From positions 4,480,001-4,544,000 of the forward strand of contig CBDFLE010000006.1 of the NCBI GenBank assembly GCA_965248925.1: a stretch of DNA of 64,000 nt, given 5' to 3'. This DNA is from Candidatus Multivoradales bacterium. GTDB taxonomy: Bacteria > Acidobacteriota > Thermoanaerobaculia > Multivoradales > J023. The translations under genes and the position numbers were made by a program. Shown here in pieces: positions 7,435-25,562 of the stretch (positions are counted from its first letter, which is position 1; each line of letters opens with the position of its first letter). The notes beneath the pieces are model-generated. The model searched no databases and had not been told where the DNA came from. It saw nothing but the letters and a program-made list of their open reading frames with translations.

Positions 7435-8064
7435 TCAAGCGCTCGACAGCAGGCTCGATAGGCGCTGATCGCGCAAGGCCCCAACCCGCGGTGCCGGCAG
7501 CGCCAGGATCGGCAGCTGACGCCGCCTCTGCTCCAGGCGGTGGCGGCGTTGGCGAATCTCCTTGACGGCTTGGGGACCGTTGGCGCGCAACTCGCGGGCG
7601 CTGAGGTGGCAAACTTCGAGTAGCAGGCCGGCGCGGTGGCGCAGACTGTCTTCCAGGTCGTCGAGCTGGGCGGCGCGAGCCAGGGTCAGAGTGGCGGCTT
7701 CGAGATCTCCACGGTCTATCTGCACTTCGCCGAGGTGGATCGCCGCCAACCCGGCGCCGGGATCGAGTTTGGTGGCTCGCGCGAACTCGCGGTGAGCGTC
7801 TTGCGGTCTCTCCTGGCGGCGATAGAGCACTCCCAGGCAGGTGTGCAGCAAGGCGTTTCCAGGCTCCATCAACACCAATCCTTCGAAGATCGCTTGCGCG
7901 GTCTTTAGCTGACCGTGTTCGATCAATTCGCTGCCATAGGCTGCCAGGGCCACTATGTCGTCGGACTCGAGCCCCAGAGCGGCAGCTAGCGAATCGTGGC
8001 CGTGGTGGAGTTCTCGCAGGCCGACATCAAGAGCTTCCTGAAGCTCTTGCAAGGTCGAAGTCAT
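7435..8064 (-). CDS. SycD/LcrH-like TPR T3SS chaperone
   Basis: AYGSELIEHGQLKTAQAIFEGLVLMEP TPR pattern; adjacent to the T3SS cluster. Confidence 0.75.
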   Translation of the reverse strand: MTSTLQELQEALDVGLRELHHGHDSLAAALGLESDDIVALAAYGSELIEHGQLKTAQAIFEGLVLMEPGNALLHTCLGVLYRRQERPQDAHREFARATKLDPGAGLAAIHLGEVQIDRGDLEAATLTLARAAQLDDLEDSLRHRAGLLLEVCHLSARELRANGPQAVKEIRQRRHRLEQRRRQLPILALPAPRVGALRDQRLSSLLSSA

Positions 8065-8066
8065 GC

Positions 8067-8597
8067 TCAGCCACTCCTGCCCAGCGTCGGCCCGCTGAGG
8101 CCAGCGTCGAGTTGCAGACGCAGCTCAGCGAGTTCACCAATGGCCTTGCCAAATCGTCCCAGGCGTTCGAGTTGTTGGCCCAGCTGCTGGGCCTGAAGGG
8201 CATTGGTCGGAGAGCACAGGGGAGTCTGTGTTGCCGCCGCTGAGGCATCGCCATGCCCAGTCTGCCCAGTGCCGAACTGTGCCTCGATCTGGCTGAGCTG
8301 CGTTCTCAGGCTGGCGGAGTTGGAAACCACCGCCTGCAGCCGGGGGGCGAGGCGTTCGATAGCTTGTTGGCGAACGTCGGCCGATGGATTCTTGCCGCTG
8401 CGATCGCGAAAAATCGGCAGGTCGCGAGCAGCAGGCGAGTGGGCGAAGCGCGCGAAGATGCTGCCGGCGCGCATCGGCGAAGCCGCCAACACCCGCCCGC
8501 TGGTGGCGCGTCGAGGAGCGATGGCAGCGGGCAGCGTAGCTACCGGGCTAGAGGGTTGGCCGCCGATGCTGCCGAAAACCCGTGCGATGAAACCCAT
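8067..8597 (-). CDS. Hypothetical protein, candidate T3SS substrate
   Basis: GGAG RBS; S/P/A-rich N-terminus; helical Q/L-rich C-terminus; ends 2 bp before the chaperone start. Confidence 0.55.
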   Translation of the reverse strand: MGFIARVFGSIGGQPSSPVATLPAAIAPRRATSGRVLAASPMRAGSIFARFAHSPAARDLPIFRDRSGKNPSADVRQQAIERLAPRLQAVVSNSASLRTQLSQIEAQFGTGQTGHGDASAAATQTPLCSPTNALQAQQLGQQLERLGRFGKAIGELAELRLQLDAGLSGPTLGRSG

Positions 8598-8896
8598 GTT
8601 GAATGACTCCTGTCGGAGACTCGGCCACGCCGTGGCCGGGCAACTCCTGACCCGATGGTTCTATGGTGTTTACGGCCGTTTGGCGGGTCGGGTTTCTCCA
8701 GTTTACCCTAGAAACATTGCAATAAAGGGATGTTTTGCCCCGCCGCACTTCGTTGAAACCCCCCGGGTAGCACCTGCGTATCCACAATTGTAAGCGCTGA
8801 TATCGTATAATGACTTCGCTATCGACGCTTCACGGTCGACTCGGTCGACTGCTGCATGGGACTACAACAGGTAAGTACAACAATGGAGATGCTCCT

Positions 8897-9175
8897 ATGG
8901 ACGACGCGCAGACTTTTTCCGTCGACGACCTCCTCAGTGTCGACAATGCCCCGTCGGCGGTCGCTGCCGAACCCACCTTGGGCGCCATCAACGCCGAAGA
9001 CTTCCCGATTTTGCATCGCTGGTTGAGCTACGACCAGAGCGCCTTCGAAGCCGAGCTGGAGATTCTCCTCGGGCTGTCGACCGAGCCCGAGCTAGCCAAG
9101 GTTAGAGACGGCATCGAAGCTGCTTCGGTCGCTCTGGCCGAGATCTACGCTGCCAAAGACGTGCTGCTCCAGTAG
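8897..9175 (+). CDS. Small acidic hypothetical protein, first gene of the T3SS operon
   Basis: GGAG RBS then ATG at 8897 (MDDAQTFSVDD...); 92 aa. Confidence 0.6.
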   Translation: MDDAQTFSVDDLLSVDNAPSAVAAEPTLGAINAEDFPILHRWLSYDQSAFEAELEILLGLSTEPELAKVRDGIEAASVALAEIYAAKDVLLQ

Positions 9176-9288
9176 TCGTCTGTTCGCGTCGCGACTCGCT
9201 TTACCCAGCAACGGTGAGACGATTCGTCACTGTCAGAAATGAGGGCTCGGTGATCGAGCCCGCGTCAAACAACAGCAGGAGGAACACC

Positions 9289-9576
9289 ATGAGTAGCAGG
9301 ATTGGACAAAACACGCCGACCGTGGCTGCCAAACCGCTCGAACTTGAACCGCAGGTTGCCAGGACCCGAGGCCTGAGGGTCGATCGCAGCGATGTCGCCA
9401 AGAAGCCGTACAAGGGCGATCCGATGAACAATCCGGATCTGGACGCCAGCTCGCGCGCTCTGTTGCAGGCTCAGCAGGCGATGTTCCGCAAGAACCAGGC
9501 GGTCACCATGGCCTCTAACCGGCAGAAGTCCGAGCATGATACCCGCAAGGCGGTGATCAACAACATGCGGGTCTAA
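9289..9576 (+). CDS. SctF-like needle/filament subunit 1
   Basis: AGGAGG RBS; 95 aa; C-terminus SNRQKSEHDTRKAVINNMRV matches the needle-protein SN..K...D....I..N pattern. Confidence 0.65.
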   Translation: MSSRIGQNTPTVAAKPLELEPQVARTRGLRVDRSDVAKKPYKGDPMNNPDLDASSRALLQAQQAMFRKNQAVTMASNRQKSEHDTRKAVINNMRV

Positions 9577-9603
9577 GCCCCGCGTTCGACCCACTGGGGT
9601 GGC

Positions 9604-9636
9604 GGTGGCGGGTGCCGCAGAGCACCGGCCACCTTT
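9604..9636 (+). terminator. Weak terminator or stabiliser hairpin between the two needle-like genes
   Basis: GGTGGCGGGTGC-cgcaga-GCACCGGCCACC (11/12 paired) followed by TTT. Confidence 0.5.
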
Positions 9637-9680
9637 CACCGGCCACTTGTCACTGGTCATTTTTCATCGAGGAGACACTT

Positions 9681-9959
9681 ATGGCCGTTCCCTACGTCGC
9701 CGGGGTCGTCGCCGGAAAATTGCTCGACCACATTTTCGCCAAACGGCGGGAAAAGAAAGGTATTACCGCGGGCGGAAGCTCTTTCGGCGAGACCTTGGGC
9801 GCCCTTTCAGGTTCCGATTCGACAGGCCAGATGGACCAGCTGCTAGCGCAGCAGCGAGAGATGTACGCCAAGAACATGCACTACACGATGCATAGCAACA
9901 TGGAGAAAGCGCGCTTCGATCTGTCGAAGAGCATTCTTCAGAATCTGCGGACCGGCTGA
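9681..9959 (+). CDS. SctF-like needle/filament subunit 2
   Basis: GAGGAG RBS; 92 aa; C-terminus SNMEKARFDLSKSILQNLR. Confidence 0.6.
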   Translation: MAVPYVAGVVAGKLLDHIFAKRREKKGITAGGSSFGETLGALSGSDSTGQMDQLLAQQREMYAKNMHYTMHSNMEKARFDLSKSILQNLRTG

Positions 9960-10032
9960 ACGCTTACTAGGCGCGCCGTCGTCCGACGATCGGGTACACA
10001 CAACACGACTTTCAACTCTGAGGATACCCACG

Positions 10033-10431
10033 TTGAGCACGCACGATCTTCGTTCCGAGCTTCCCTCCCTCTTCGTAGAGTTGTCGCTGGCGCTAACCAC
10101 CGCCGATCTGCCGCGGCGCGCTGACGACCTGATCGAGTCGCTACGAATCCTCTGGCCAGATCGCCAGATCACCCACTTCGTCAGTGGCATCGTCCATGCC
10201 AAGGCCCAGCGTTTCGAAGAAGCGGAAGGTCACTACCGAGCGGCGCTGGCCGAGGAGCCGGAGAATCCGGGTATCCAGGCGATGCTGGCTGAGGTGCTGA
10301 TGGGTCTCGATCATTGGCAGGAGGCCAAGCAGCTGATCCTCGCCGTGCTCGACAATGACCAGGCCGGCCCGGCCCGGGTCTTTGCTGAAGAGCTTCGCGG
10401 CCAGCTGGCTGGCGTCGCGGCCACCGGCTAG
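10033..10431 (+). CDS. TPR protein (YscG/HrpB1-like position)
   Basis: TPR pattern GIVHAKAQRFEEAEGHYRAALAEEPENP; lies between the needle and rod genes. Confidence 0.65.
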   Translation: MSTHDLRSELPSLFVELSLALTTADLPRRADDLIESLRILWPDRQITHFVSGIVHAKAQRFEEAEGHYRAALAEEPENPGIQAMLAEVLMGLDHWQEAKQLILAVLDNDQAGPARVFAEELRGQLAGVAATG

Positions 10432-10540
10432 AGAGTAGTAAAGCGACTGACGGGAGGGCTTTCACCACGCCCTTTCTATCGGCCTAGGCGGCGGCGCCCT
10501 GCGCGCCATCGCCGTGGCCACCACATCAAGGAGATCAGCG

Positions 10541-11014
10541 ATGTCGCTAGGTGCCGTTTCCCTGGGCAACCAGGAAGTGCTGCAACAAGCCCAGCGGGCG
10601 GTCGACAGCACCCCCAAACAGCTGCAGGACTTCAGCGAAGTGCTGAACCAGCTCGATAGCGCCGGCCAGGATGGCGCCGGTTCTGCTGCTGGAAACACAA
10701 TTCAAAACGATTTGCCAGCGCTCGACATTAACCAGGTCGAGCTGCCGGACGATCTCGATGGGATCTACTCCGACAAACTCGAGCAGGTCGCCCAACCCGG
10801 CGGTGCCGAACGTTTGTTGGCCGAAGCGCAAGACAAGTATTCGCGCCTCGACCAGATGATCGCCGAACTTGGCAGCGGCCGCAGCTACAGCCCGGAAGAG
10901 CTGGTTGGCATGCAGACCGAAGTGCATCGCATCACTTTTGAACTCGAAGCCACCACCAAAGTCATGGGGCAAGTGGTTTCCGGGATCAAGAACCTGATGC
11001 AGCAGCAGATCTAG
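10541..11014 (+). CDS. sctI: SctI-like inner rod protein
   Basis: C-terminus SPEELVGMQ...ELEATTKVMGQVVSGIKNLMQQQ; directly upstream of sctJ; AAGGAG RBS. Confidence 0.7.
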   Translation: MSLGAVSLGNQEVLQQAQRAVDSTPKQLQDFSEVLNQLDSAGQDGAGSAAGNTIQNDLPALDINQVELPDDLDGIYSDKLEQVAQPGGAERLLAEAQDKYSRLDQMIAELGSGRSYSPEELVGMQTEVHRITFELEATTKVMGQVVSGIKNLMQQQI

Positions 11015-11025
11015 GAGATCGGCTA

Positions 11026-11865
11026 GTGATACGCAGATTCCAAGCCCTTATTTTGGCCCTGGCTCTGGTGCTGCTGCTGGGTTGCAACACCGACCTGCTG
11101 CACCAGCTCGAAGAGGTCGAAGCCAACCACATCATCACCCAGCTGCAGCAGCACGGCATCAGTGCTGAGAAAAAGGTCGAAGATGCCGAGGCCAACACCT
11201 GGACGGTGCGGGTATCGGGTCGCTCCGCCGCTCGGGCGCAGGCGATTCTTGACGAGTACAAGCTGCCCAAGCAGCGCGAGCCACGGGTGCGTGATTTGTT
11301 CTCGGCCCAGGGCTTGGTGCGCACCCCGACCCAGGAAGGCATCCTGGCGCAGGCGGCGCTCGAAGGTGAGCTGGCCTACACCCTGGAGGGCATCGAGGGC
11401 ATTATCGACGCCCGCGTCCATTTGGTGATGCCGCGCACCGATCTCACCGGCCGGCGGATCAGCCAGGCCAAGGCCTCGGTATTCGTCGAGTACCAGCCTT
11501 CGGCTCAGGGAGTGGTGCCGGTGCAGGATGGCGAGATTCAGAAGATGGTGGCGCACGCGGTCGAGGATCTGGTGCCGGCCAATGTCGCCGTAGTGCAGAA
11601 ACCGGCCTCGATCGCCAGCCCGGCGACCCCCGCCGGCGGTGGCCCGGAGTTGGTCAGCCTGGGGGGCCTGGTGGTCGCTTCAGATACCCTGCCAGCGCTG
11701 CGCATCGCGGCGGTCACCGTCGCTGGCCTGGTGGTGGTCCTCGGCCTGCTCTTGTTTCTGCTCAGCCGCCGCCTGAGCCGGTTGCGGGCTGAGTTGCGCG
11801 GGGCGCAGCAAATCCAAAACGTCCCCTCGGCGCGGGCCGAAGGTGAAACGGCGAAGGCCAGCTGA
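11026..11865 (+). CDS. sctJ: T3SS inner-membrane ring lipoprotein SctJ
   Basis: Lipobox LLGC; L.E.EAN.I...L...GI; IEGIIDARVHLV; AKASVF; C-terminal TM helix. Confidence 0.93.
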   Translation: MIRRFQALILALALVLLLGCNTDLLHQLEEVEANHIITQLQQHGISAEKKVEDAEANTWTVRVSGRSAARAQAILDEYKLPKQREPRVRDLFSAQGLVRTPTQEGILAQAALEGELAYTLEGIEGIIDARVHLVMPRTDLTGRRISQAKASVFVEYQPSAQGVVPVQDGEIQKMVAHAVEDLVPANVAVVQKPASIASPATPAGGGPELVSLGGLVVASDTLPALRIAAVTVAGLVVVLGLLLFLLSRRLSRLRAELRGAQQIQNVPSARAEGETAKAS

Positions 11866-11867
11866 AA

Positions 11868-12803
11868 ATGGCGCCGGAGGCATCATGGCAGAGTTTCTTT
11901 TCTCTCGCCCTGAGTAGCTGGCGGGAGCGTGAGGGGGAAAGCCGTGCCGAACTTCCCGAGTGGTTGCCTGGCGGGCTGATCGAGCGCCTCGGCAAGAGCC
12001 CGATCGAGTGCCGGAGTGAACTCCTCGAATTGCTGCGCCAGCGCAGTGTGGCCGGTACTCTAGAGCTTGTCCACCCGACTTGGGTGGTCCTACATTTGCC
12101 TACCGACGCACTGCTTTGCCGCTGGGCGGTGATGAGCCTGCCCGCCGCTTTGCGCCTTCCCACCGCGCTGCTGGTCAGCAGGCGAGTAGGCGACTTCGAG
12201 CCCGGTAGCCCGCCACCGTGGTTTGCTGGGTGGTGGCGTCGCCGGCTCGCTCAGCGCCTGGACTATCCGGCACCGATGCCATGGACCCATGCTCCTGACC
12301 TGCCCATCTCTTGGCTTTGGCGGTTGCCGGTGGAGCCGCTGCAAGAGGTGCTCTTGCGCTATGGTCTGCGACCCTTGGCGGCGGTCTTCGCCAAGCTTGA
12401 TGCCAGGGATGCGGCGCGCTTGGCCTACACCGTTGCGCCGCCACTGCGGGATCGGTTGGTGGGCTTGGTGCGGGGTCGCGAACATCCCGACACAGAGCCG
12501 TGGTTCGCGGTCTATCAACGCTGGGTTGAGGTCTCGGGCGAGCCGGCCGAACTGCCGCTGCGAATGGCCTTACTGCGACTCGCCAGCAGCTCTTCGCTGC
12601 GCCGTCAACCGGCCGATTTTCGCCGCCTGGCTTACCGCTTGCCGACCAAATTTGGCCAGCTGCTGTTCGACGATCCCCCTGCCGGCCTGCCCTCTAGCGG
12701 CGCCGGTGCCGAACTCGGCCAGTTGGTTGGCGACCTGGTCGCGGCGGGGGAGTTGGAGATTCCGGGTCAGCTGTCAGGATCTGCTGCTGAGACTCTGCAA
12801 TGA
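11868..12803 (+). CDS. Putative SctK-like sorting-platform protein
   Basis: Position between sctJ and sctL; VHPTW motif. Confidence 0.5.
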   Translation: MAPEASWQSFFSLALSSWREREGESRAELPEWLPGGLIERLGKSPIECRSELLELLRQRSVAGTLELVHPTWVVLHLPTDALLCRWAVMSLPAALRLPTALLVSRRVGDFEPGSPPPWFAGWWRRRLAQRLDYPAPMPWTHAPDLPISWLWRLPVEPLQEVLLRYGLRPLAAVFAKLDARDAARLAYTVAPPLRDRLVGLVRGREHPDTEPWFAVYQRWVEVSGEPAELPLRMALLRLASSSSLRRQPADFRRLAYRLPTKFGQLLFDDPPAGLPSSGAGAELGQLVGDLVAAGELEIPGQLSGSAAETLQ

Positions 12804-13429
12804 ACACCAAGATCATCAAGTCGAGTCCGCCGGCCGAGGCGACGAATCCGCACGGCAAAATAATCGAGCGCGAGGTCTTGCTGGCGCACGAGGAAGCCCG
12901 ACGGGTGTTGGTGGAAGCCGAAGTGCAGGCCGCCGCGGTGGTCGAGTCGGCGCGCCAGCAGGCGGCGGCGGTGTTGCGGCGGGCCGAGCGTGAGGGGCAG
13001 GAACGCTCGCTGGCCGATTGGCAGCAGCGTTTGGCGCGGCTCGCCGAGGCGCGTCAGCAAGTGCTTGCCGCTGCTCGGCCACAGATCCTGCGATTGGCGG
13101 TGCGAGTGGCGGAGAAGATCCTCCGCCGTCGCTTGCAAGAGGATCCGGCGGCCTTTGATCCGCTGGTCGAAGAGACTCTGGAGACCGTTCGCGCCCAGCC
13201 CGGACAGCAGATCGTGCTGCGTGCCCATGCCGAGGACCGGGCGCGGCTGGAAGACCTCCGCCGCCGCTTGATCGAGCGCCATCCGGGGTGGAGCAGCCTT
13301 CAGGTTCAGGTCGATCCGGCGATGGCTGTCGGAGGCTGTCGGGTGGAGACGGAGTACGGCACCGTCGACGCTGGCTTGTCGACCCAACTGCGGGCGATCG
13401 AGAAGATTTTGCTGGAAGGCCAAGGATGA
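12800..13429 (+). CDS. sctL: T3SS stator SctL (YscL/FliH)
   Basis: A...A...G helical N-terminus; [20 protein letters not shown]. Confidence 0.9.
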
Positions 13430-14778
13430 GCAGCGCCGAGCGCGATCTCGATCTTGATCTCAATCTCGATCTTGAAGGAACTTTCGCCCGCCTGGAGCGA
13501 GCGACCACGGTGGAGATCCGCGGCCGGGTCACCGAAGTGACCGGTCTGGTGATCAAGGCTCGGGTGCCGGGAGTGCGCATCGGCGAACTCTGCTATCTGC
13601 GGACGCCGCTGCGCGAACAGACAGTGCAGGCCGAAGTGGTGGGTTTCCGTGCTCAGGAGGTCTTCCTGATGGCCTTGGGCGAGCTCGAAGGCATCGGCCC
13701 TGACTCCGAAGTGCTGCCGACTGGCGAGGTGATGAGCGTGCCGGTGGGTCCAGGGTGTTTGGGCCGGGTGCTCAACGGCCTGGGCGAGCCGATCGACGGC
13801 AAGGGGCCGCTCGAAGCCGGCTCTGCTCCCTACCCGGTCTATGCGCCGCCGCCCAATCCGATGAAGCGGCGGCGGGTGGTCGATTCCTTTGGCATGGGCA
13901 TCCGCTCGATCGACTCTTGCCTGGCGGTGGGTGAGGGGCAGCGGGTCGGCGTTTTCGCCGCCGCTGGCGGTGGTAAGTCCACTCTGTTGGCGATGCTGGC
14001 GCGCAACACGGTAGCCGACGTCAACGTCATCGCGCTGATTGGCGAACGTGGCCGCGAGGTGCTCGACTTCATCGAGGAAAGCCTTGGCGAAGAAGGCATG
14101 GCGCGTTCGGTGCTGGTGGTGGCGACCTCTGACCAACCCTCCTTGGTGCGTCTCAAATCTGCCTACGTGGCGACTTCGATTGCTGAGTATTTTCGCGACC
14201 AGGGGCAGAAAACCCTGTTCATGATGGACTCGGTCACCCGTTTTGCCCGCTCCCAGCGAGAGGTTGGTTTGGCCATTGGCGAGCCGCCGGCACGGGCTGG
14301 TTTTCCCCCTTCGGTCTTCGCCGTTCTGCCGCGGTTACTCGAGCGCACCGGCAATTCTGAGCATGGTTCGATCACCGCCATCTACACCGTCTTGGTGGAG
14401 GGGGATGACATGACCGAGCCGATCGCTGACGAGGTGCGTTCGATCCTCGATGGCCACATCATTCTCAGCCGTGAGCTCGCCGCTCGTAACCACTATCCGG
14501 CGATCGACATTCTCAAGAGCACCAGCCGGGTGATGAACTCGGTGGTGGCGCCAGAGCATGTGGCGGCCGCCGGCCAGCTGCGCGAGCTCCTCGCCGCTTA
14601 CGAGAAGAACCGCGACCTGATCTTGATCGGTGCGTACCAGAAGGGCAGCGATGCCAAAGTTGATCGGGCGATCGAGATGATGCCCAAGATCGAGTCTTTT
14701 CTGCGTCAAGGCACCCACGACAAGCAGTCCTTCGAAGACACCGCCGAGCAGCTCTCCAGCTTGCTGAGGGAGAACTGA
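13426..14778 (+). CDS. sctN: T3SS ATPase SctN
   Basis: Walker [10 protein letters not shown]; LIGERGREV; [10 protein letters not shown]; [15 protein letters not shown]. Confidence 0.96.
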
Positions 14779-14779
14779 G

Positions 14780-15271
14780 ATGGCTGCAGCCTATCCCCTG
14801 CAAGCCGTGCTCGAGCTGCGGCGGCGACAACGTGACACCGCCCGCCAGGCCCTCGCCGAGCGCATCGAGGACGAGCACCGCGCCAACCTCGAGCAGACGC
14901 GGCTGCTGCGTCGTGGCGAAAAGTTGGCCGAGGAGGTTCTGCGCGCCAGCTCGCGGCTCTACGAACCGGCCGACGACGGCACTCTAGAAGTGGCCGGCGC
15001 CCTTGATCGCCGCGCTGATTTCGAGCATTGGCAGCAAGAAGTTGCCGAGCAACAGCAGCGGATGGAGCGCCAGCGGCAGGCTATTGCCCAAGCTGCCGCG
15101 GCGATTGATGCCGCGCGCGAAGAGCTACTCGAAGCAACCCGAACTCTCGAGGCTATCGACAAGCACTTCAGCCGCTGGCTGGACAAGATCGCCCGCCAAG
15201 CTCGTCGCCGCGAAGAGCGCCTCGCTGAGGAGATCAACACCAGCCGTTTCGTCAGCGGCCAAAGTGGCTAG
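14780..15271 (+). CDS. sctO: T3SS stalk SctO (YscO/FliJ)
   Basis: YPLQAVLELR start; coiled coil; directly after sctN. Confidence 0.8.
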   Translation: MAAAYPLQAVLELRRRQRDTARQALAERIEDEHRANLEQTRLLRRGEKLAEEVLRASSRLYEPADDGTLEVAGALDRRADFEHWQQEVAEQQQRMERQRQAIAQAAAAIDAAREELLEATRTLEAIDKHFSRWLDKIARQARRREERLAEEINTSRFVSGQSG

Positions 15272-15283
15272 GAGGATTTGCCG

Positions 15284-17492: not shown

Positions 17493-17842
17493 GTGGACAC
17501 TTCTCTTTGGCCCTCTTTGCTCAATGTCGGTGGGGCACTGGTGGTGGTAGTGCTGCTGGCGGTGGTGCTGCTGCGCTTTGCCGCACCCTGGTTGCGACGC
17601 TTGCAGACACCGGAGGCTCGCAGATTTCAGTATTGGAGGTCAAAGCCCTCGATCGCCAGCACCGGGTGGCCCTGCTGCGGGTACGAGAAGAAGATTTTCT
17701 GGTCGCCTTGGGCGCTGGTAGCCCGTGCTTGCTGCGCTGCTGGCCGGCGGGCGACCGTGACCCCAAAGAGCCGGAGGCGCTGGCTTCCGGCACCGCCGAG
17801 ACCAGCCGCAGCGCAACCAGCCGTAGAGAATCCAGCGACTAG
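17493..17842 (+). CDS. fliO: FliO-like protein (one-base frameshift near 17610, probable sequencing error)
   Basis: GTG start and TM helix in one frame; ISVLEVKALDRQHRVALLRVREEDFLVALG (FliO-type) in the -1 frame. Confidence 0.7.
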
Positions 17843-17855: not shown

Positions 17856-18605
17856 ATGCCTCAGCTAATTCCTCTTTTCGCCATTGCCGGTACAACCGCC
17901 GCCAGTACCGTGCCCAATGCTGCGGCGAGCTTGGGGGCCAATCCTCTCTCCCTGATGCTGTTGCTGGCCCTGCTGTCGATGTTGCCCTTCGTGCTGATGA
18001 TGTCAACCTCCTTCCTGAAATTCGCCGTGGTGCTGTCTCTGCTGCGCCAGGCGCTGGGCACTCAGCAGGTGCCGCCGACGCCGGTGATCATGGGCCTTTC
18101 GATGATCTTGACGGTCTATGTGATGTCGCCGGTGCTGGGTGAGGTCTATGCCGAGTTGGAGCCGCAAATTGTGGCCACTGACTCCACCGAGATGCTGTCG
18201 GGAAAGGGAGCTGAGACTGTGTTGGGGGCGCTCAAGCGGGCGGCGCCTGCACTCAAAGGTTTCCTGGTCAAGCATGCTCATGGTCGCGAAGTGGAAGCGT
18301 TTCATGCTTGGTCGAACATGCTGCGCAGCGGGGCCACCGGGGTCGAACCACTGGCTCGCGACAGCTTGTTGGTGCTTATTCCGGCCTTCGCTGTCTCTGA
18401 ACTCAACGAGGCCTTCACCATCGGTTTCTTGCTCTTCTTGCCCTTCTTGATCATCGACATGGTGGTGTCGAACATCTTGCTGGCGATGGGCATGCACATG
18501 CTCTCGCCGGTGGTGGTGTCGCTGCCCTTCAAGCTGTTGCTGTTCATCATGATCGATGGTTGGGCCCTGCTTACCCGAGGGTTGTTACAGCCATACTTTG
18601 TCTGA
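17856..18605 (+). CDS. sctR: Export gate SctR (FliP family)
   Basis: TSFLKFAVVLSLLRQALGTQQVPP; PAFAVSELNEAFTIGF; SLPFKLLLFIMIDGW; AGGAG RBS. Confidence 0.95.
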   Translation: MPQLIPLFAIAGTTAASTVPNAAASLGANPLSLMLLLALLSMLPFVLMMSTSFLKFAVVLSLLRQALGTQQVPPTPVIMGLSMILTVYVMSPVLGEVYAELEPQIVATDSTEMLSGKGAETVLGALKRAAPALKGFLVKHAHGREVEAFHAWSNMLRSGATGVEPLARDSLLVLIPAFAVSELNEAFTIGFLLFLPFLIIDMVVSNILLAMGMHMLSPVVVSLPFKLLLFIMIDGWALLTRGLLQPYFV

Positions 18606-18656: not shown

Positions 18657-18923
18657 ATGGAAAGCCACATCATAGATCTCCTACAGCGCGCCATCCTGGT
18701 GACCGTGATGGTCTCAGGGCCACCGATCGCTGCCGCCATGGTGGTGGGTCTGGGGCTGGCCCTGGTGCAAGCCTTAACCCAGGTGCAGGAGCAGACCCTG
18801 CAGATGGCGTTCAAGATCATCGCCGTCTTTGGAACCCTGTCGGTGCTGGGCTATTGGATGGCCAATCAAGTGCACGCTTTCGCCCGTCTGGTGTTCGAGA
18901 ACTTCGGTACTTGGGTGGGTTGA
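18657..18923 (+). CDS. sctS: Export gate SctS (FliQ family)
   Basis: QALTQVQEQTL; 88 aa hydrophobic. Confidence 0.95.
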   Translation: MESHIIDLLQRAILVTVMVSGPPIAAAMVVGLGLALVQALTQVQEQTLQMAFKIIAVFGTLSVLGYWMANQVHAFARLVFENFGTWVG

Positions 18924-18932: not shown

Positions 18933-19772
18933 GTGACCACCGGGCTCGAAGCATTCTTCACCCCGCTCGCCGCCGAGCTGGGAGTGCGCCACGGTCTTGA
19001 GGGCACCTTGCGCTTGCTAACCCTGGCGATGGCCCGCTGGGCACCGATCATTACCTTGGCGCCGTTCATGGGTGGCCGCTTGATCCCGGCGCCGGTGCGG
19101 ATGGGTTTGCTGGTGCTGTTCTCGCTGCTGGTGTTGCCGGCGATCAGCCAGACGGCGCCGCGGCCCTTGTTGATTGGCCCCGTCGAGTGGTGGGCGCTGG
19201 TGCTGAAGGAGACCTTCATCGGTCTGGTGATCGGATTCGCTGCCTCCCTGGTGTTTTGGGGTGGTGAAATGGGCGGCCGTTTGATCGACACGGTGCGTGG
19301 CACCACCACCGCCAACTTATTGATCCCCCAAGCCAAAGTGCAGAGCACGATTCTCGGCGATGTCTACTTCCAGCTTTTCATCGTGCTCTATCTAGTGTCC
19401 GGCGCTCACCTCTTCTTTTTCGCCGCGGTGGCCGATTCCTACCGTCTACTGCCACCCACCGAGTTGACTTTGAATCTCGGTGGTGGGGCCGAACTCTGGC
19501 TACTGGCGGTGGGAAACCTTTTTGTCATCGCGGTCAAGATCATTGCTCCGGCGCTGGTGGTGGTGATGTTTCTCGACATAATGTTGGGGGTGGCCAACCG
19601 CATGGCGCCGCAGCTCAACGTTCACTTCTTGGGCATGTCGTTGAAGGCATCATTGGCGTCTTTGGCGTTGTCTTTGTCGTTGTACTACGTGCTGTCAATG
19701 GCCGGTGACCTCTTCGCTGACCAGCAGCGCTGGATCGAGCTGCTATTTCGCCAGTTGTCTAGACCTGGCTGA
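18933..19772 (+). CDS. sctT: Export gate SctT (FliR family)
   Basis: KETFIG..IG; G.LID..RG; NRMAPQLNV. Confidence 0.93.
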   Translation: MTTGLEAFFTPLAAELGVRHGLEGTLRLLTLAMARWAPIITLAPFMGGRLIPAPVRMGLLVLFSLLVLPAISQTAPRPLLIGPVEWWALVLKETFIGLVIGFAASLVFWGGEMGGRLIDTVRGTTTANLLIPQAKVQSTILGDVYFQLFIVLYLVSGAHLFFFAAVADSYRLLPPTELTLNLGGGAELWLLAVGNLFVIAVKIIAPALVVVMFLDIMLGVANRMAPQLNVHFLGMSLKASLASLALSLSLYYVLSMAGDLFADQQRWIELLFRQLSRPG

Positions 19773-19786
19773 GTAGGAAGCAGACG

Positions 19787-20905
19787 ATGTCTGAAAAGAC
19801 CGAACAACCCACCCCCAAGAAACTGCGCGATGCCCGGCGCAAGGGCAACATCGCCTTCAGCCGTGATTTCAATGGCATCGTTACTTACATCGTGGGTCTG
19901 GCGTTGGTCTTCGTCGCCGCTGGGGGCATCGCGCGGGGCTTTCGCGACTTCTATGTCGAGGTCATCGAAGTGATCGCTATCGGCAACTTCGAGGACGGAG
20001 CCTGGGCCGAGATGACTGGCCGTGCTTTGTCGACGGTCTTTGCCATGTCGGCGCCCTTCATGCTGGCGGTGGCCCTGGTTGGTGGGGTGGTGGGTTTTCT
20101 CCAGGCCGGGCCACTGTTTTCTACCGAGCCCTTGGTGCCGAAGCCGGAGAAGCTCAATCCGCTGAATAAGCTCAAGCAGTGGTTCGCGCCCAAGGGTCTG
20201 TTCGAGTTGGCCAAGTCTGCGCTCAAGCTGGGTTTGATTTTCTGGATCGGCTGGCTAGTGCTGCGCGGCAGCTCGGGGCAGCTGCTACAGCTCGGTCTGC
20301 TCGGCGAGCGCGAGTTGCTGATCTTTCTGGCCTCACACGTCAAGCTCTTCCTGGCCATCATCGGCTTCGCCTTTCTGATCTTGGGGGTGGTCGACGTCCT
20401 TTTCCAGCGTTGGCAGTGGCGGCGCGGTCTGCGGATGTCGAAAGACGACATCAAGCGCGAGTGGAAGAGTGCGGAAGGCGACCCCTTGATCAAGTCGCAG
20501 CGCAAGGCCCTGCATCGCAGCATGGCGGCGGATGGCGGTGCCGCTGGCGCGACCAAGAAGGCGGCGGCGGTGGTGGTTAATCCCACCCACCTGGCGATCG
20601 CTCTGGAGTTCGACGAAGGCGCCGGGCAAGCTCCGGTGGTGGCGGCCAAGGGCCAGGGCAAGTTGGCCAAGCAGATCTTGCGGGTGGCGCGCCGGCATCA
20701 AATTCCGATTATTCGCAACAAGCCGCTGGCCTGGCAGCTGCTGGAGATCGACGTCGAAGAGGAGATTGACCCCGATCTCTATGAAGCAGTGGCGGAAGTG
20801 ATTTTGCTTGCCCGCAAGCTGCAAGCGCGGGCCGCCGGCGAGGTCGCTGACGAACCGGAGGATGATCCAGATGAGCCTTCCCATGGCTCGGAATCGGTGC
20901 CTTGA
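19787..20905 (+). CDS. sctU: Export switch SctU (FlhB family)
   Basis: MSEKTEQPTPKKLRDARRKG; EGDP; NPTH autocleavage motif. Confidence 0.96.
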   Translation: MSEKTEQPTPKKLRDARRKGNIAFSRDFNGIVTYIVGLALVFVAAGGIARGFRDFYVEVIEVIAIGNFEDGAWAEMTGRALSTVFAMSAPFMLAVALVGGVVGFLQAGPLFSTEPLVPKPEKLNPLNKLKQWFAPKGLFELAKSALKLGLIFWIGWLVLRGSSGQLLQLGLLGERELLIFLASHVKLFLAIIGFAFLILGVVDVLFQRWQWRRGLRMSKDDIKREWKSAEGDPLIKSQRKALHRSMAADGGAAGATKKAAAVVVNPTHLAIALEFDEGAGQAPVVAAKGQGKLAKQILRVARRHQIPIIRNKPLAWQLLEIDVEEEIDPDLYEAVAEVILLARKLQARAAGEVADEPEDDPDEPSHGSESVP

Positions 20906-20998
20906 GTAGACCCTTATGGCCCGCTAGCTTGGCGATGAGACACGGTCGATGGATCTGCCGGTAGATTTGCCGGTAGACCTTAGAGTTACAGCGAAAGG

Positions 20999-23197
20999 AT
21001 GACACCCGTGAAGACCCCCACCGTACCCGCCACTGATCTGAGAGCGCTCCACGCCAAGCTTACCGCCGGCGATCTGGCGACGGTTCTGACCCGCTACAGC
21101 GACATTATGTTGGCAGTGGTGGTGATCTTGTTGGTCGGCATCATGATCATCCCGATGCCGGCCTTTCTGCTCGATTTCTTCCTGGCCACCAACATCACCA
21201 TGGCGGTGACCTTGTTGATGATCTCGCTTTATCTGCCGAATGCGCTGTCGCTGGCGTCTTTTCCGTCGATTTTGCTGATCACCACTCTCTTTCGCTTGTC
21301 CCTCAATGTCTCTTCGACCCGGCTGATCTTGCTCAAGGGAGATGCCGGGTCGGTGATCGAATCGTTCGGCCAGTTCGTGGTGGCGGGTGACTTCATCGTT
21401 GGTTTTGTGATCTTCCTGATCATTACCCTGGTTCAGTTCCTGGTCATCGCCAAGGGGGCCGAGCGGGTCTCGGAGGTCGGCGCCCGCTTCACTCTCGATG
21501 CCTTGCCGGGTAAACAGATGTCAATCGACGCCGATCTGCGCTCGGGGCTGATCGATGTCACCGATGCCCGGCTTCAACGTCAAAACGTGCAACGAGAAGC
21601 ACAGTTTTACGGCGCCATGGATGGGGCGATGAAGTTCGTCAAGGGCGATGCTATTGCCGGCATCATTATTTCGGTGATTAACATCGCTGCCGGCCTCGCC
21701 ATCGGCGTGGCGGTCAAGGGGATGGCGGTTGGGGCGGCGGCCGAGAAGTACACCCTACTGACCATCGGCGATGGCCTGGTGTCGCAGATTCCGTCGCTGA
21801 TCATCTCGATGGCGGCGGGCATCATCACCACCCGAGTGGCCTCGGCCGACCCCAACGACCCTGACGCCGAGAGTTCCCTCGGCGCCGAGATCGGCACCCA
21901 AATCCTGTCGCAGCCCAAAGCGATCGCTATCGCGGCGGTGATGCTAATGCTGCTCGGCGCCATTCCCGGGTTGCCGATGGTGCCGTTTTTCGCCCTCGCT
22001 GGCGTCACTGGCACCTTGGCTTACAGCTTGATCAAGACCCGCCGGCAGAAAGAACTCGAGGCAGTGCGAGCGGAGTTCGTCGAGCCAGCGATGGAACTCG
22101 CCGGCAACGAGAAATCTCGCCTGCCGATGACCGTGCCGGTGCTGCTCGAAGCCAGCCCCGAGGTCACCCCCTTGGTCGATGCGGAGGGCGGCGGCTCGCG
22201 TTTCACCGACGAGCTGGTGCCGCAGATGCGCGAGTGGTTGTTTGGCGAACTCGGGGTCTTGTTCCCGGGCGTTCGGGTACGGGGCGATTCGGCTCACCTG
22301 GAGAGCCACAGCTATACCTTGTTCGTCAACGAAGTGCCGGTGGCGCGCGGTGTGGCGATGGCTGACCGGGTGTTCGTTGGCGATAATCTGGAGCAGATCC
22401 TGATGCTCGGCATCGAGGGGGTGCGCGGGCCCCACCACAGCGCCGACCGGGATGGCCTGTGGCTCAGCCCGGAGGAGGCGCGCCAAGTCGAGCAGGCGCA
22501 GGGGGGTGGCGCTTTCATGCAGCCCGAGGAGTTTATCGTCGTCCATCTGTCGAATGTCTTGCGGCGCAAGGTCGACGAGTTGATCGGCATCCAGGACGTG
22601 CAGAACATCCTCGACCTGATGGAGCAGCAGGGTTTCGAAGCCCTGGTCCAGGCGGTGGTACCGCGGTTGATCTCGGTACCCCAGCTGACCGAGATCATGA
22701 AACTGCTGCTCGCCGAGGAGATCTCGGTCAAGAATATGGTGGCGATTCTCGAAGCCTTGGCGCGCACTGGCGCCTCGGAATCAGACCCCATGGTGTTGGC
22801 CGAACACGTGCGGGTGGGCCTGAAGCGCTACATCGGCTTCAAATTCTCCCGCGGCCGCTCGGTGGTGCCGGTCTATCTGATCGATCCGCAGATCGAGCAG
22901 CAGGTCCAGGCGGCGCTGCGCAAGACTGCCAACGGTACCTCGCTCCAGCTGGCGCCCGAGGCCAGTCGGCAGATTGTCAGTGCATTCCGCGATATCCTCG
23001 GCGCGGCCGAGGCCGAAGGCCCGCCGATCGTGCTCACCCAGATGAATGTGCGACCGCATGTCAAGCAGCTGCTGGCGCGCGCCCACCCCGAAGCGGCGGT
23101 GCTGTCGTTCCAGGAGCTGCCCAGTGATTTGCAGCTGCAGCCGGTGGGCAGGATCACCTTGGATCAGCCGCAACTCGCCGCCAGTCCGGCCGAGTGA
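20999..23197 (+). CDS. sctV: Export gate SctV (LcrD/FlhA family)
   Basis: ERVSEVGARFTLDALPGKQMSIDADL; GAMDGAMKFVKGDAIAG. Confidence 0.97.
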   Translation: MTPVKTPTVPATDLRALHAKLTAGDLATVLTRYSDIMLAVVVILLVGIMIIPMPAFLLDFFLATNITMAVTLLMISLYLPNALSLASFPSILLITTLFRLSLNVSSTRLILLKGDAGSVIESFGQFVVAGDFIVGFVIFLIITLVQFLVIAKGAERVSEVGARFTLDALPGKQMSIDADLRSGLIDVTDARLQRQNVQREAQFYGAMDGAMKFVKGDAIAGIIISVINIAAGLAIGVAVKGMAVGAAAEKYTLLTIGDGLVSQIPSLIISMAAGIITTRVASADPNDPDAESSLGAEIGTQILSQPKAIAIAAVMLMLLGAIPGLPMVPFFALAGVTGTLAYSLIKTRRQKELEAVRAEFVEPAMELAGNEKSRLPMTVPVLLEASPEVTPLVDAEGGGSRFTDELVPQMREWLFGELGVLFPGVRVRGDSAHLESHSYTLFVNEVPVARGVAMADRVFVGDNLEQILMLGIEGVRGPHHSADRDGLWLSPEEARQVEQAQGGGAFMQPEEFIVVHLSNVLRRKVDELIGIQDVQNILDLMEQQGFEALVQAVVPRLISVPQLTEIMKLLLAEEISVKNMVAILEALARTGASESDPMVLAEHVRVGLKRYIGFKFSRGRSVVPVYLIDPQIEQQVQAALRKTANGTSLQLAPEASRQIVSAFRDILGAAEAEGPPIVLTQMNVRPHVKQLLARAHPEAAVLSFQELPSDLQLQPVGRITLDQPQLAASPAE

Positions 23198-23225
23198 GCG
23201 GTGACCGGCAAGGAGAGAGCGCGAG

Positions 23226-23795
23226 ATGTCATTTCAGGTGTTGGTGCAGAATCCGGCGGGCGAGGTGCTGCGCTGGGAGCTGGATAAGAGTTCGGTCTAC
23301 CTCGGCCGTCTCGAGGGCAATGACATTCGTCTCACCCATTCGTTTGTCTCGGGCCTGCACTTGTTGATCGAGCGTCGCGGTAGCGGCTTTGTGGTCAAGG
23401 ACTTGGGTTCTACCGAGGGAACCCTGTTGCGGGGCAAGGTGATCGAGCCGCACGTCGAACAGTCCTGGCGCTTCGGCGAGTCGTTGCAGATCGGTAATCT
23501 GGTGTTGCAGGTAGAGCCGGGAGAGGACGAGACCCTGGTCGAAGTGCTGCCCGAGTCCCTGACGGTCGGTGTCCGCGGGGAGCTACCGGCGGTTTCCGCA
23601 GCGAGCGCCCTGGGATCCGGCGCGGACGTCATCGACGCAGTTCCCAACGCCGCTGATGGCAACATCTTCGACACCGCGGCCAGCCCGCCGCGTGCGCCTG
23701 CGCGGCCGTTGCCTTGGGGGCTGATACTGCAATTCCTGGCCGCTTTCGTGGTCCTCGCCGGCGTCATGTTAGCGGTCGTCACTTTGTTGCTTTAG
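23226..23795 (+). CDS. FHA-domain protein with C-terminal TM helix
   Basis: LGR...SGLH...KDLGSTEGT; hydrophobic tail. Confidence 0.85.
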   Translation: MSFQVLVQNPAGEVLRWELDKSSVYLGRLEGNDIRLTHSFVSGLHLLIERRGSGFVVKDLGSTEGTLLRGKVIEPHVEQSWRFGESLQIGNLVLQVEPGEDETLVEVLPESLTVGVRGELPAVSAASALGSGADVIDAVPNAADGNIFDTAASPPRAPARPLPWGLILQFLAAFVVLAGVMLAVVTLLL

Positions 23796-23804
23796 GAGTT
23801 CTTC

Positions 23805-25562
23805 ATGGCGCCTGCAAAAATGCATGGAATTCTTCGTCTCGAGCAAGGCGAGGAGATTTTGGCTGAACTCGAGCTGACCCCGGGCCGGCCGGTGATTCTG
23901 GGTCGCTCCGAGCAGGCCGAGGTGCGGGTGCAGCACGCAACGGTGTCGCGTCGCCACGCCCGCCTGTGGATCGATGCTGAGGGTGCCCAACTAGAGGATC
24001 TGGGCTCATCCAACGGCACTTTGCTCGACGGCCAGAAAATAGAGGGCCAGGTGACCCTGGCCGATGGCCAGCGAATTCAGCTCGGCCAGCGAACAGTCGC
24101 CGAGCCGGTGAAAATTCGCTTTGAGGATCCGGCCGCCGGTGTGCTGCGGGAGATGGGGTTGTGGGACGATTCGCCAGCAGCCAGAACTAGAGCCGGGTCG
24201 TCGGCGGATGAAGAGGCGCCGGCTGAGAGCGGGCGAGAAGGGGCTGCGGCAACCGCTCCGGCAGGCACCAATTTGCCGGCCACCGATTCGTCGGCGGCAG
24301 CCTCCCCCTCCGCCGGCGAACGTCGGGTCGGCGAAGAGCTGCGAGATCCTCGGGTATTGTTGATCCTGGCCTTCGCTTTGGTGTTGGTGGCTGGCGCCAG
24401 CATTGGCTTGCTACGCTTCCTGCGTCCCGCGGCGACTTATTGGCGCTCAGTGCAGATCATGCCGGCGGAAATCGGTCCCGATGTCGCGGTGCGGCTGTCT
24501 AGTTTCGATATTGGCCGGGCTAGTGGACTGGAACTGTTGCTCGGTGACACGCCGGTAGAAGACTTGCAAGTCGAACGCGGCCGGCTGAGCTTTCGCGCTC
24601 CCCAGCTCGACACCCTGGGCGGCGGCAAACTCGGCTTACCGCTGGTGGCTCGGCGCGGTGGGGTGGAGGTCTATCAGCGGGTATTGACCTACAACGTGGT
24701 GCCGCGACTCGACCCTCTGCCGATCGAGCAGCTGCCGGTTGGCGAAGTCCTGACCTTGAGCGGTCGCGGGTTGCACGAAGATGCCAGCAAGATCGCGGTC
24801 TACTTTGGCGAGCAAGCTGGCTGGGTGCTAGAGAGCGATTCCCGGACCGTTCGCGTCCGAGTGCCGCCGGTGTTAGCTCAAGACTCGCCGCCGCGCTTGG
24901 CCTTGCGGGTCGAAGTGGATGGCTTGCGCGCCGCCGCTCCGCTGCCGGACTTCGCTATCTTGCCGTGGATTGGCGAGCCACTTCGACTGGAGCTGAGTGC
25001 CTCCTTTCGCGACCCGGTTGATGACACGGCTGGCGCTTGGCAGCTGCACCACGCCTTAGGTCCGGCTTATGTCCTGGACGGCCCGGCGCCGGCCGCGGAC
25101 GGTTCTTTGCCGGCAGCCGTGGCGCAGGTGATCGAGCGTTGGAATCAACTGTTCGAAGTCGTTGAGCGCGATCCGAGGGTCCGTCTCGTCGGCCGGACGG
25201 CGGCGGAGTCGTGTGAGCTGGTGGCGGTTGGTGGGGCGGTGGGTGGAGCAGGCTTGAGTGTTGCCCGGTTCGCCCGTGGAGAGTTGGCGCTGGCCCTCGG
25301 CTTGCGGCCTGACGACCTCTCTAACCGCAATCTCTGCGCCCGTACCGCCAGTGTGTGGGATCACCTGCTCAATGCCTTTGCCAGGGGTCAGGAAGTGCGG
25401 GGCCTGGCCAGTCCGCCGCCCTATGTCAGGGTACTTGATCGACTGGTTGCGGCCAGCCGTTGGCGGGGTGGTAATGGGCGTCCGGCGGCCAGCGATCTAG
25501 TGGTGCTGGACGCCACCGATCGCGAGCGTTTGGCTCAGGCCTTTGCTAACCCTGGAGGCTGA
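23805..25562 (+). CDS. FHA - TM - IPT/TIG-like protein
   Basis: Canonical FHA (LGRS, VSRRH, DLGSSNGT); TM helix; GEVLTLSGRGL......VYFG...VRVRVP is IPT-like. Confidence 0.75.
   Translation: MAPAKMHGILRLEQGEEILAELELTPGRPVILGRSEQAEVRVQHATVSRRHARLWIDAEGAQLEDLGSSNGTLLDGQKIEGQVTLADGQRIQLGQRTVAEPVKIRFEDPAAGVLREMGLWDDSPAARTRAGSSADEEAPAESGREGAAATAPAGTNLPATDSSAAASPSAGERRVGEELRDPRVLLILAFALVLVAGASIGLLRFLRPAATYWRSVQIMPAEIGPDVAVRLSSFDIGRASGLELLLGDTPVEDLQVERGRLSFRAPQLDTLGGGKLGLPLVARRGGVEVYQRVLTYNVVPRLDPLPIEQLPVGEVLTLSGRGLHEDASKIAVYFGEQAGWVLESDSRTVRVRVPPVLAQDSPPRLALRVEVDGLRAAAPLPDFAILPWIGEPLRLELSASFRDPVDDTAGAWQLHHALGPAYVLDGPAPAADGSLPAAVAQVIERWNQLFEVVERDPRVRLVGRTAAESCELVAVGGAVGGAGLSVARFARGELALALGLRPDDLSNRNLCARTASVWDHLLNAFARGQEVRGLASPPPYVRVLDRLVAASRWRGGNGRPAASDLVVLDATDRERLAQAFANPGG

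Follow-up and report, generated by a model that had tools for sequence, protein, structure and literature searches.

A 64,000-nucleotide stretch of the genome of Candidatus Multivoradales bacterium, a member of the Acidobacteriota (G000:C6:4480001-4544000; referred to here as the window), carries at positions 7435 to 25562 a cluster of genes for a nonflagellar type III secretion system (T3SS). We consider it likely, at a probability of roughly 0.7, that this is a secretin-less, early-branching T3SS which has retained needle-like parts and FliO and whose substrates would be handed to another outer-membrane conduit. Descriptions of the secretin-less grade have so far come from Myxococcota; the carrier here belongs to the Acidobacteriota, and its sampled order-mates are without the system. 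The host genome comprises 7.98 Mb in 6 contigs and is 96.9% complete with 2% contamination.

The gene cluster is real. The open reading frame (ORF) listing and the matches to Pfam and NCBIfam families, which lie far above chance, place the named genes in the order proposed in an initial annotation made from the sequence of the window: two sctF-like genes, a tetratricopeptide repeat (TPR) gene, sctI, sctJ, sctK, sctL, sctN, sctO, sctP, sctQ, fliO, sctR, sctS, sctT, sctU, and sctV, with a divergent gene for a SycD-like chaperone. Family models identified SctI, J, L, N, O, P, Q, R, S, T, U, and V as well as the SycD-like chaperone, and the strongest matches were to FHIPEP (E 7e-214), the SctU family (E 3e-99), the ATPase domain (E 5e-87), and the FliP family (E 9e-65). 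SctV, SctN, SctR, and SctS scored above the NCBI cut-offs for the nonflagellar equivalogs and below the flagellar ones. For SctT and SctU the nonflagellar model outscored the flagellar model, yet the score remained under its own cut-off. Judged by these models, the core proteins are Sct rather than flagellar equivalogs. About 20 ORFs of the cluster are intact, and the sole frame break lies in fliO. The G+C content of the cluster (0.60 to 0.66) is not odd for a genome in which the contigs have values of 0.62 to 0.64. A consensus scan of positions 7000 to 26500 was uninformative, both for promoter-like sites (1 observed and 2.4 expected) and for terminator-like sites (26 observed and 15.2 expected, with none at the operon end).

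By its predicted products, the export gate SctRSTUV is complete, with a FliO-type gene directly before sctR, and so is the cytoplasmic sorting platform with its ATPase complex, to which SctL, SctN, SctO, an FHA-bearing SctQ, and a probable SctK belong. SctJ had been described as a short lipoprotein rather than FliF, and its sequence agrees with this description. The protein has 279 residues, with a lipobox (LLLGC) and a membrane helix at the C terminus, and it scored 93.6 bits on PF01514 and 158.5 bits on TIGR02544 (cut-off, 161.95) versus 50.2 bits on the fliF model; the predicted ring protein is therefore a short lipoprotein and not FliF-like. The assignment of SctK stood in part. The position of the gene speaks for it, and language-model neighbors at 0.83 to 0.85 included YscK, HrpB4, and OrgA_MxiK clusters, which is a lead only, but the protein (11868-12803) has no match in Pfam or NCBIfam.

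Genome-wide searches detected no SctC-class secretin, the best score being 125.5 bits against a cut-off of 238.45. Three secretin-domain genes are present, in PilQ, type II secretion system (T2SS)/type IV pilus (T4P)-like, and Tad-like loci. One of them is PilQ itself (366 bits, above its cut-off, and adjoining pilM), another lies beside a gene for a GspE/PilB-type ATPase and the third beside one for a TadA-type ATPase, and the nearest secretin gene is about 261 kb away from the T3SS cluster. HrpJ/SctW (PF07201) had no match in the genome, nor did the SseC-type translocator (PF04888), a search that left other translocator and tip families aside. The models for SctC (526 bits), HrpJ, and SseC all matched on a T3SS contig of Bilophila wadsworthia used as a positive control. 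The initial annotation had found no recognizable SctC, SctW, or hydrophobic translocators in the cluster, and the genome-wide searches bear this out; they also revealed no second locus with sctC, sctW, or translocon genes. A search for related loci yielded at least 584 stretches, a broad sample and not a set of the nearest relatives. The same absence was seen in relatives. Among nine further genomes that carry early-branching systems, of which eight are Acidobacteriota and one is Archangium, none has an SctC-class secretin (0 of 5 and 0 of 4 in two sets), and in the set of five no secretin was located near the T3SS where the contigs permit judgment. HrpJ and SseC had no match in the four Acidobacteriota relatives tested. 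The single FHIPEP gene found in the genome is of Sct type, and the rod/hook C-terminal domain Flg_bbr_C, the model for which matched in four flagellated genomes, had no match genome-wide, as expected from the earlier claim that rod and hook genes are missing. Within the cluster, no genes for a FliF-length ring, FliG, rod, hook, flagellin, or L/P ring were seen, and no conserved outer-membrane candidate was found there.

The placement of the system as an early-branching injectisome, proposed initially by analogy with the Myxococcales systems, was supported by trees of SctV and of SctRSTU. SctV/FlhA trees were computed with FastTree (128 rows) and as an IQ-TREE quick tree (65 rows, LG+C20+F+G4 PMSF, SH-aLRT); several rows of the FastTree set and of the SctRSTU set have a deviant amino-acid composition. 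SctN was present in just 20 loci. In both SctV trees, the flagellar FlhA clade is separate with a support of 100, and the window protein falls outside it, in a clade of 14 to 15 rows (support, 100) with proteins named as Acidobacteriota or Thermoanaerobaculia and with genomes of the same phylum. When the trees are rooted on flagella, a Polyangiaceae/Archangiaceae group branches first (96 to 99) and the window clade second (94 to 97), followed by two further Acidobacteriota groups, a Myxococcota group that contains Archangium, and a Schekmanbacteria protein. The crown (99) unites Chlamydiae with canonical proteobacterial, Desulfovibrionales, Lentisphaeria, and Verrucomicrobia systems. In a quick tree of the concatenated SctRSTU proteins, with 926 columns for 40 rows, three groups were separate: the flagella (100), the canonical proteobacterial systems with Desulfovibrionaceae (100), and an intermediate group (91), which contains the window clade (100), other Acidobacteriota, Archangium, and Chlamydiae. 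On these core proteins, the window system lies outside the flagella and outside the canonical injectisome clade.

The closest SctV proteins (55 to 64% identity) are from metagenome-assembled genomes (MAGs) named by NCBI as Thermoanaerobaculia or Acidobacteriota, and Myxococcota proteins come next (46 to 49%). The SctV of another genome of the same phylum as the window (G045) is identical to a protein named as Acidobacteriota, which fixes the phylum and confirms the earlier suggestion of a probable Acidobacterium. The gene order L-N-O-P-Q(FHA)-FliO-R-S-T-U-V-FHA-FHA/TM recurs in loci L035, L036, and L037 and, from Q(FHA) onward, in L045; these four loci are from two other families of the phylum, with identities of 25 to 73%. 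A FHIPEP match was obtained in 118 of 401 sampled genomes of the phylum. About 22 of the 118 are SctV-like (at least 43% identity), and the rest look flagellar. Among the same-order genomes listed, 0 of 17 have a FHIPEP gene. This patchy presence within the phylum fits either lateral gain or repeated loss.

Other systems of the phylum differ in composition. In another Acidobacteriota family (f44), the T3SS clusters carry a gene for a FliA/WhiG-like sigma factor between the needle-module genes and sctI, at L041:3272-3955 (+) (161 bits) and L044:15158-15859 (-) (141 bits; TIGR02479, cut-off 189.6) and also in L046 and L038; the window cluster has none. Families f59 and f41 (L042/G160, L043/G281, and L047/G271) have sctV without other core genes within 20 kb, and in f59 the gene is found beside two F-like paralogues and a TPR gene. 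The f59/f41 systems branch beside Chlamydiae and the canonical families in the FastTree SctV tree, yet they are without an SctC-class secretin. Two SctV matches, at G281:C2:20959-23076 and G337:C2:704292-706409, have one in-frame TAG in an open frame of 789 residues.

The FliO-like gene listed in the initial annotation is present before sctR but is split over two frames in the assembly. The membrane helix is encoded in the same frame as 17472/17493, whereas the soluble part shares its frame with ORF 17417-17842, and the Pfam FliO model matched the second piece only (E 1.2e-3, 19.3 bits; cut-off, 22). In nine related loci, fliO is a single intact ORF of 112 to 162 codons with both parts. Logan contigs from three runs (X2, X3, and X4, which are from one sample with a depth of 15 to 20 and are possibly the assembly's own source) contain an extra G behind position 17611 that joins both frames. 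Four runs were listed as containing this DNA; all are from that sample, and no RNA run was among them. Read through with an X at the break, the window gene matched the relatives' profile in one stretch with 38.9 bits versus 18.8 bits for the second frame alone. Because the extra G joins the frames and the read-through matches as one stretch, the break is most likely a homopolymer error of the assembly, with the gene intact in the organism.

We additionally examined the distribution of FliO using a profile seeded with the nine ORFs that are intact in Acidobacteriota relatives (threshold, E 0.01). It matched in 10 of 10 Acidobacteriota nonflagellar loci with sctR, nine of which contributed the seed ORFs, while L040 is an independent match (E 3.9e-28). 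The profile also matched in both of the Archangium loci and in 33 of 38 flagellar loci with fliP, where the match adjoins fliP, but in 0 of 8 canonical injectisome loci with sctR. The match adjoins sctR in most nonflagellar loci and lies elsewhere in the cluster in L038 and L044. As judged by this profile, FliO retention is a trait common to the secretin-less grade. The accompanying remark that FliO is normally flagellar is dated, since FliO in nonflagellar T3SS of Myxococcota and some Pseudomonadota was reported in 2025 (PNAS; PMC12403147); in the passages of that paper concerned, Acidobacteriota are mentioned just for a FliO without a membrane region.

Two proteins had been called SctF-like. 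Gene context and a profile-profile match speak for this assignment, but neither protein has a Pfam or NCBIfam match. Seven F-like proteins, drawn from the window and from five related loci, have a C-terminal helix in common. A profile of these proteins aligned with MxiH of Shigella and two other annotated needle proteins with a hhalign probability of 83% over 38 columns, the C-terminal helices aligning end to end, at an E of 8.8e-6 that is valid for that single comparison. Against Protein Data Bank (PDB) sequences, PrgI ranked second and fourth best with a nonsignificant E of 0.5 to 0.6, and the profile weakly matched small ORFs in other T3SS loci, including the annotated needle gene of N. vulgaris. 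The small TPR protein that follows the F-like genes matched PF09613 HrpB1_HrpK with an E of 2.9e-6 (27.4 bits, under the cut-off of 29.3). In a predicted complex, residues 77 to 94 of F-like subunit 1 sit in the groove of the TPR protein; the model scored 0.67 versus 0.01 for the best of 3 controls, a mark that 58 of 80 solved complexes attained, as did 2 of 110 mismatched pairs (these counts apply roughly, since alignments of our own were used). The model runs share at least 89% of contacts, with a partner predicted local distance difference test (pLDDT) value of at least 57. Needle-chaperone complexes of a similar kind, YscEFG and PscEFG, have been solved. On this evidence, the SctF-like proteins are probably needle subunits.

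The SctI match to PF17001 is below the cut-off, and homologues occupy the same position in relatives. As in the window, where a gene for a 121-residue protein holds the YscE/PscE position, small ORFs precede the F-like gene in L036, L044, L038, L041, and L046. The F-like subunits, the TPR chaperone, the FliK-type ruler SctP, SctI, and the NPTH motif of SctU together indicate that the parts for a length-controlled polymer have been kept. At the chaperone end, the SycD-like protein matched TIGR02552 LcrH_SycD over profile positions 5 to 134 of 136 (E 1.2e-14, 54.1 bits; below the cut-off of 104.8). The 176-residue protein encoded next to it (8067-8597) has no Pfam family, an NCBIfam match at chance level only (E 0.048), and no hydrophobic segment, and it is a candidate secreted substrate. 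In one relative (G029), an ORF of 222 codons with no NCBIfam family (L036:17107-17775, minus strand) is located between sctI and sctJ; it is absent from the window.

Three FHA domains, one of them fused to SctQ and the others in two proteins encoded downstream of sctV, went unmentioned in the first reading. In SctQ, an FHA domain (E 4.7e-15, residues 96 to 160) precedes the FliMN_C domain (E 5e-14, residues 455 to 525), together with a SpaO_YscQ match, and the SctQ-FHA fusion is also found in relatives. A smaller FHA protein with a hydrophobic tail in its sequence follows sctV, as it does in L035, L036, L037, and L045. The third is an SctD-like protein of 585 residues, for which an AlphaFold2 model (26-row alignment, pLDDT 85) shows an FHA domain (residues 1 to 117), a disordered linker, one membrane helix (182 to 206), and, on the periplasmic side, two beta-sandwiches followed by an alpha/beta C-terminal domain. 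In Foldseek searches, the FHA domain best matched the FHA domain of Chlamydia CT664 (3gqs; TM 0.87, 33% identity), which we take to be CdsD, the chlamydial SctD, and the sandwiches matched IPT-type domains. The SctD ring domain was absent among the matches listed for the whole model and for its C-terminal domain, and the latter, modeled alone (pLDDT 76), had no match at an E of 0.001 or lower. An exhaustive search with the periplasmic region of about 380 residues retrieved 44 relatives among 1.84 billion representatives, and a word-indexed protein search with the same part retrieved the protein itself alone. We read this protein as a topological counterpart of SctD whose modeled periplasmic build is different. 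The presence of three FHA domains in the cluster suggests docking or control through phosphothreonine signaling.

Table 1. Predicted genes of the T3SS cluster, in window coordinates
Feature	Coordinates	Strand	Basis
SycD/LcrH-like TPR chaperone, divergent	7435..8064	-	TPR Pfam families; TIGR02552
176-residue protein, no known family	8067..8597	-	Just upstream of chaperone gene, same strand
121-residue protein in YscE/PscE (needle co-chaperone) position	8810..9175	+	Position only; no family
SctF-like subunit 1	9289..9576 (ORF listed from 9214)	+	hhalign of C-terminal helix; complex model
SctF-like subunit 2, paralogue of subunit 1	9681..9959 (ORF listed from 9612)	+	Alignment with subunit 1 and relatives; in profile A2
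Small TPR protein, YscG/HrpB1-like chaperone of F-like subunits	10033..10431	+	PF09613; complex model
SctI, inner-rod protein (weak match)	10514..11014	+	PF17001 E 1.4e-4; TIGR02497 E 5.6e-3
SctJ, inner-membrane ring lipoprotein	11026..11865	+	PF01514; TIGR02544; lipobox
Probable SctK, sorting-platform adaptor, 311 residues	11868..12803	+	Between sctJ and sctL
SctL, stator	12800..13429	+	PF02108 E 6e-20; HrpE/YscL and FliH models
SctN, ATPase	13426..14778 (ORF listed from 13288)	+	TIGR02546 631.7 bits (cut-off 604.75); Pfam domains
SctO, stalk	14780..15271	+	PF16789 YscO-like E 1.6e-11
SctP, ruler with FliK-type C-terminal domain	15278..15904	+	PF02120 Flg_hook E 2.8e-9, 37.1 bits (cut-off 29.8)
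SctQ with N-terminal FHA domain	15901..17490	+	FHA; FliMN_C; TIGR02551 E 8e-23
FliO-like, split over two frames in assembly at 17611/17612	17493..17842	+	Pfam FliO on second piece
SctR	17856..18605	+	TIGR01102 211 bits (cut-off 208.6); NF009438 234.9 bits; PF00813
SctS	18657..18923	+	TIGR01403 78.4 bits (cut-off 76.5)
SctT	18933..19772	+	PF01311 E 3e-51; TIGR01401 146.3 bits, best model, under cut-off
SctU, switch protein	19787..20905	+	PF01312 E 3e-99; NPTH autocleavage motif in translation
SctV	20999..23197	+	TIGR01399 742.4 bits (cut-off 692.25); sole FHIPEP gene found in genome
FHA protein with C-terminal membrane anchor	23226..23795	+	FHA E 8e-12; Yop-YscD_cpl 34.9 bits (cut-off 33.2)
FHA-helix-periplasmic protein, 585 residues	23805..25562	+	Yop-YscD_cpl 49.8 bits (cut-off 33.2); TIG domain; TIGR02500 E 1e-3

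The claim that unrelated genes flank the cluster on both sides was upheld for the genes with a family match, which look unrelated and encode a CarboxypepD_reg repeat protein, AhpC/TSA, avidin-family, and TPR proteins, an amidohydrolase, and an M48 peptidase, but it does not extend to the ORFs at about 5.7 to 7.4 kb, which are without a family. Upstream of the cluster, positions 3401-5650 (-) encode a protein of 749 residues with three CarboxypepD_reg repeats that appears unrelated to the T3SS, and just beyond the cluster end lies a gene for a secreted protein of the avidin family (26086-26607, minus strand; PF01382, E 2e-15). The ORFs downstream of the SycD-like gene, at about 5.7 to 7.6 kb, were checked as translocator candidates and have no Pfam family; by eye, the sequence resembles a truncated membrane protein of glycosyltransferase type more than it does a translocator. 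Among them, ORFs 6638-7612, with hydrophobic segments, and 6169-6780 overlap in different frames (6169-7612, minus strand), directly downstream of the gene for the SycD-like protein. The two may represent a single gene for a membrane protein that a further single-base assembly error, suspected near 6.7 kb, has split, or else a truncated gene.

Among known systems, the window system is most readily compared with the Myxococcales T3SS, which, in the passages of Abby & Rocha (2012; PMC3459982) on those systems, is likewise early branching and without secretin, gatekeeper, tip, and translocon. Shared features are a sorting platform, an export gate, SctJ, and a FliO encoded with the gate. In contrast to the Myxococcales systems, the host belongs to the Acidobacteriota, SctQ carries an FHA domain, and two SctF-like subunits, a TPR chaperone, and a ruler are kept. 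The window SctV clade is also separate from, and not monophyletic with, both Myxococcota groups in trees computed without M. xanthus, and a mapping of the window system to the published M. xanthus "long" and "short" loci is outside the reach of these trees. The same parts of Abby & Rocha (PMC3459982) give the Myxococcales systems as lacking SctF, infer that the earliest nonflagellar T3SS had one, and list Acidobacteriota with flagella only. The portions of a further study dealing with the needleless T3SS* of Myxococcus xanthus describe it as acting with the Kil Tad-like pilus and propose a two-machine mode (PMC12075869). By title and the beginning of the abstract, none of the publications listed for T3SS in Acidobacteriota or Thermoanaerobaculia describes a system such as that in the window; SctV homologues in MAGs have already been named by the NCBI pipeline. 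Relative to the Myxococcales systems, the new elements would be another phylum, a clade of its own, a probable needle module, and the predicted FHA-bearing platform and ring proteins.

The resemblance to the Ysc injectisome of Yersinia and Pseudomonas lies in the gene order: an E-like gene, F, a G-like TPR gene, and then I, J, K, L, N, O, P, Q, R, S, T, U, and V. For the Ysc system, the order of yscN-U and lcrD was seen in L134, and the remaining genes are arranged as yscEFGHIJKL. A further likeness is the C-terminal helix of a needle-like subunit predicted to lie in the TPR chaperone. Unlike the Ysc system, the window system is without SctC and SctW, with pilotin, LcrV, and YopB/D listed as absent too, whereas it has FliO, an SctD-like protein with a differing periplasmic part, and an SctV that is about 42% identical. 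FHA domains on basal-body and platform proteins are shared with the chlamydial T3SS, but the SctV trees join the Chlamydiae to the canonical families that bear a secretin, and the Chlamydiae have one themselves according to the relevant passages of Abby & Rocha (PMC3459982). The flagellar export apparatus resembles the window system in having FliO directly before the FliP homologue and in the FliH-, FliJ-, and FliK-type domains found in SctL, SctO, and SctP; however, the core proteins of the window are outside the flagellar clade, and Flg_bbr_C is absent genome-wide.

In the mechanism that we favor, FliO would aid the assembly of the SctR/S/T core in the way that flagellar FliO serves FliP, and an inner-membrane basal body would form. 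The rod and needle-like subunits would be exported first, and the ruler and the SctU NPTH switch would stop a short periplasmic polymer at a set length. Later substrates would cross the inner membrane only and would leave the cell through another outer-membrane conduit, for which the genome offers Tad-like and T2SS/T4P-like secretin systems. By analogy with the Myxococcus T3SS*, we think such a hand-over the most likely route because the system has no secretin, tip, or translocon of its own, and because no tip or translocon was found, the targets would be neighboring microbes rather than animal or plant cells.

Several observations weigh against this reading. A length-controlled needle that stays in the periplasm makes little sense and favors an outer-membrane portal of another kind. 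No link was shown between the T3SS cluster and the Tad-like or T2SS-like loci, the nearest of which is the one about 261 kb away, and the SctD-like protein matches no known ring-building domain in its periplasmic part. The F-like assignment is based on a weak sequence signal (no Pfam match and an E of 0.5 for PrgI), and the passing score of the complex model may reflect likeness to solved needle-chaperone complexes and not binding. Tree support is SH-like only, and Myxococcus xanthus sequences were left out of the trees. With a completeness of 96.9%, a gene could still be missing from the genome, and the system is known here from its genes alone.

The main rival, which we regard as unlikely, is a true needle that crosses the outer membrane via a nonsecretin portal, which would make the system a one-step, contact-dependent injector. 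The portal could be formed by the extended periplasmic part of the FHA-TM protein with an outer-membrane protein or could result from local envelope remodeling. The ruler, the NPTH switch, two needle-like subunits, and a dedicated chaperone have all been kept, pointing to a length-controlled polymer, and the periplasmic region of the SctD-like protein, with its 44 relatives, is unusual. However, the cluster has no conserved outer-membrane candidate, no tip or translocon was found, and we know of no precedent for a nonsecretin T3SS portal. It is highly improbable that the system is a conventional split injectisome with the secretin, gatekeeper, and translocon encoded elsewhere or too diverged for detection, even if chlamydial systems are scattered over several loci (as stated in the part of PMC3459982 on them), tip and translocon proteins evolve fast, and the genome is not fully complete. 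The three secretins of the genome are in PilQ, T2SS/T4P-like, and Tad-like contexts and far under the SctC cut-off, the absence recurs in the 9 further genomes that carry early-branching systems, whereas the control injectisome was detected, and the clade lies outside the secretin-bearing group. We give equally little credence to the idea of a relic in decay or of a flagellar export apparatus in reduced form, with no role in secretion. The frameshift of fliO in the assembly and the lack of FHIPEP in all 17 sampled order-mates would fit a relic, but the frameshift is absent from the read-derived contigs, and some twenty intact ORFs have kept their order across families at 25 to 73% identity. 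The Sct-type scores, the position outside the flagellar clade, the short SctJ, and the lack of a rod/hook domain likewise oppose descent into either state. The secretin-less system with hand-over of substrates to another conduit is the reading that we retain.

A more far-reaching proposal, which is tentative and which we hold to be somewhat improbable, is that this Acidobacteriota clade represents the intermediate whose existence Abby & Rocha inferred without observing it, with the ancestral needle module and FliO and with a divergence that preceded the recruitment of the secretin. If so, a length-controlled filament handles the outer membrane without a secretin, and the SctD-like protein, which combines Ig-like domains with one whose fold has no known match, would belong to an envelope-spanning ring of a new type. 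The origin of the injectisome from the flagellum is known from comparative inference only, and the one pre-secretin lineage described so far, that of the Myxococcales, has lost the needle. A second, secretin-less lineage from another phylum in which needle-like subunits, FliO, and a ruler persist would reveal the composition of the pre-secretin machine and would allow direct tests of how the machine functions and how it deals with the outer membrane. The practical value of this hinges on a cultured or culturable host. The system extends the nonflagellar T3SS to the Acidobacteriota, an abundant phylum of soils.

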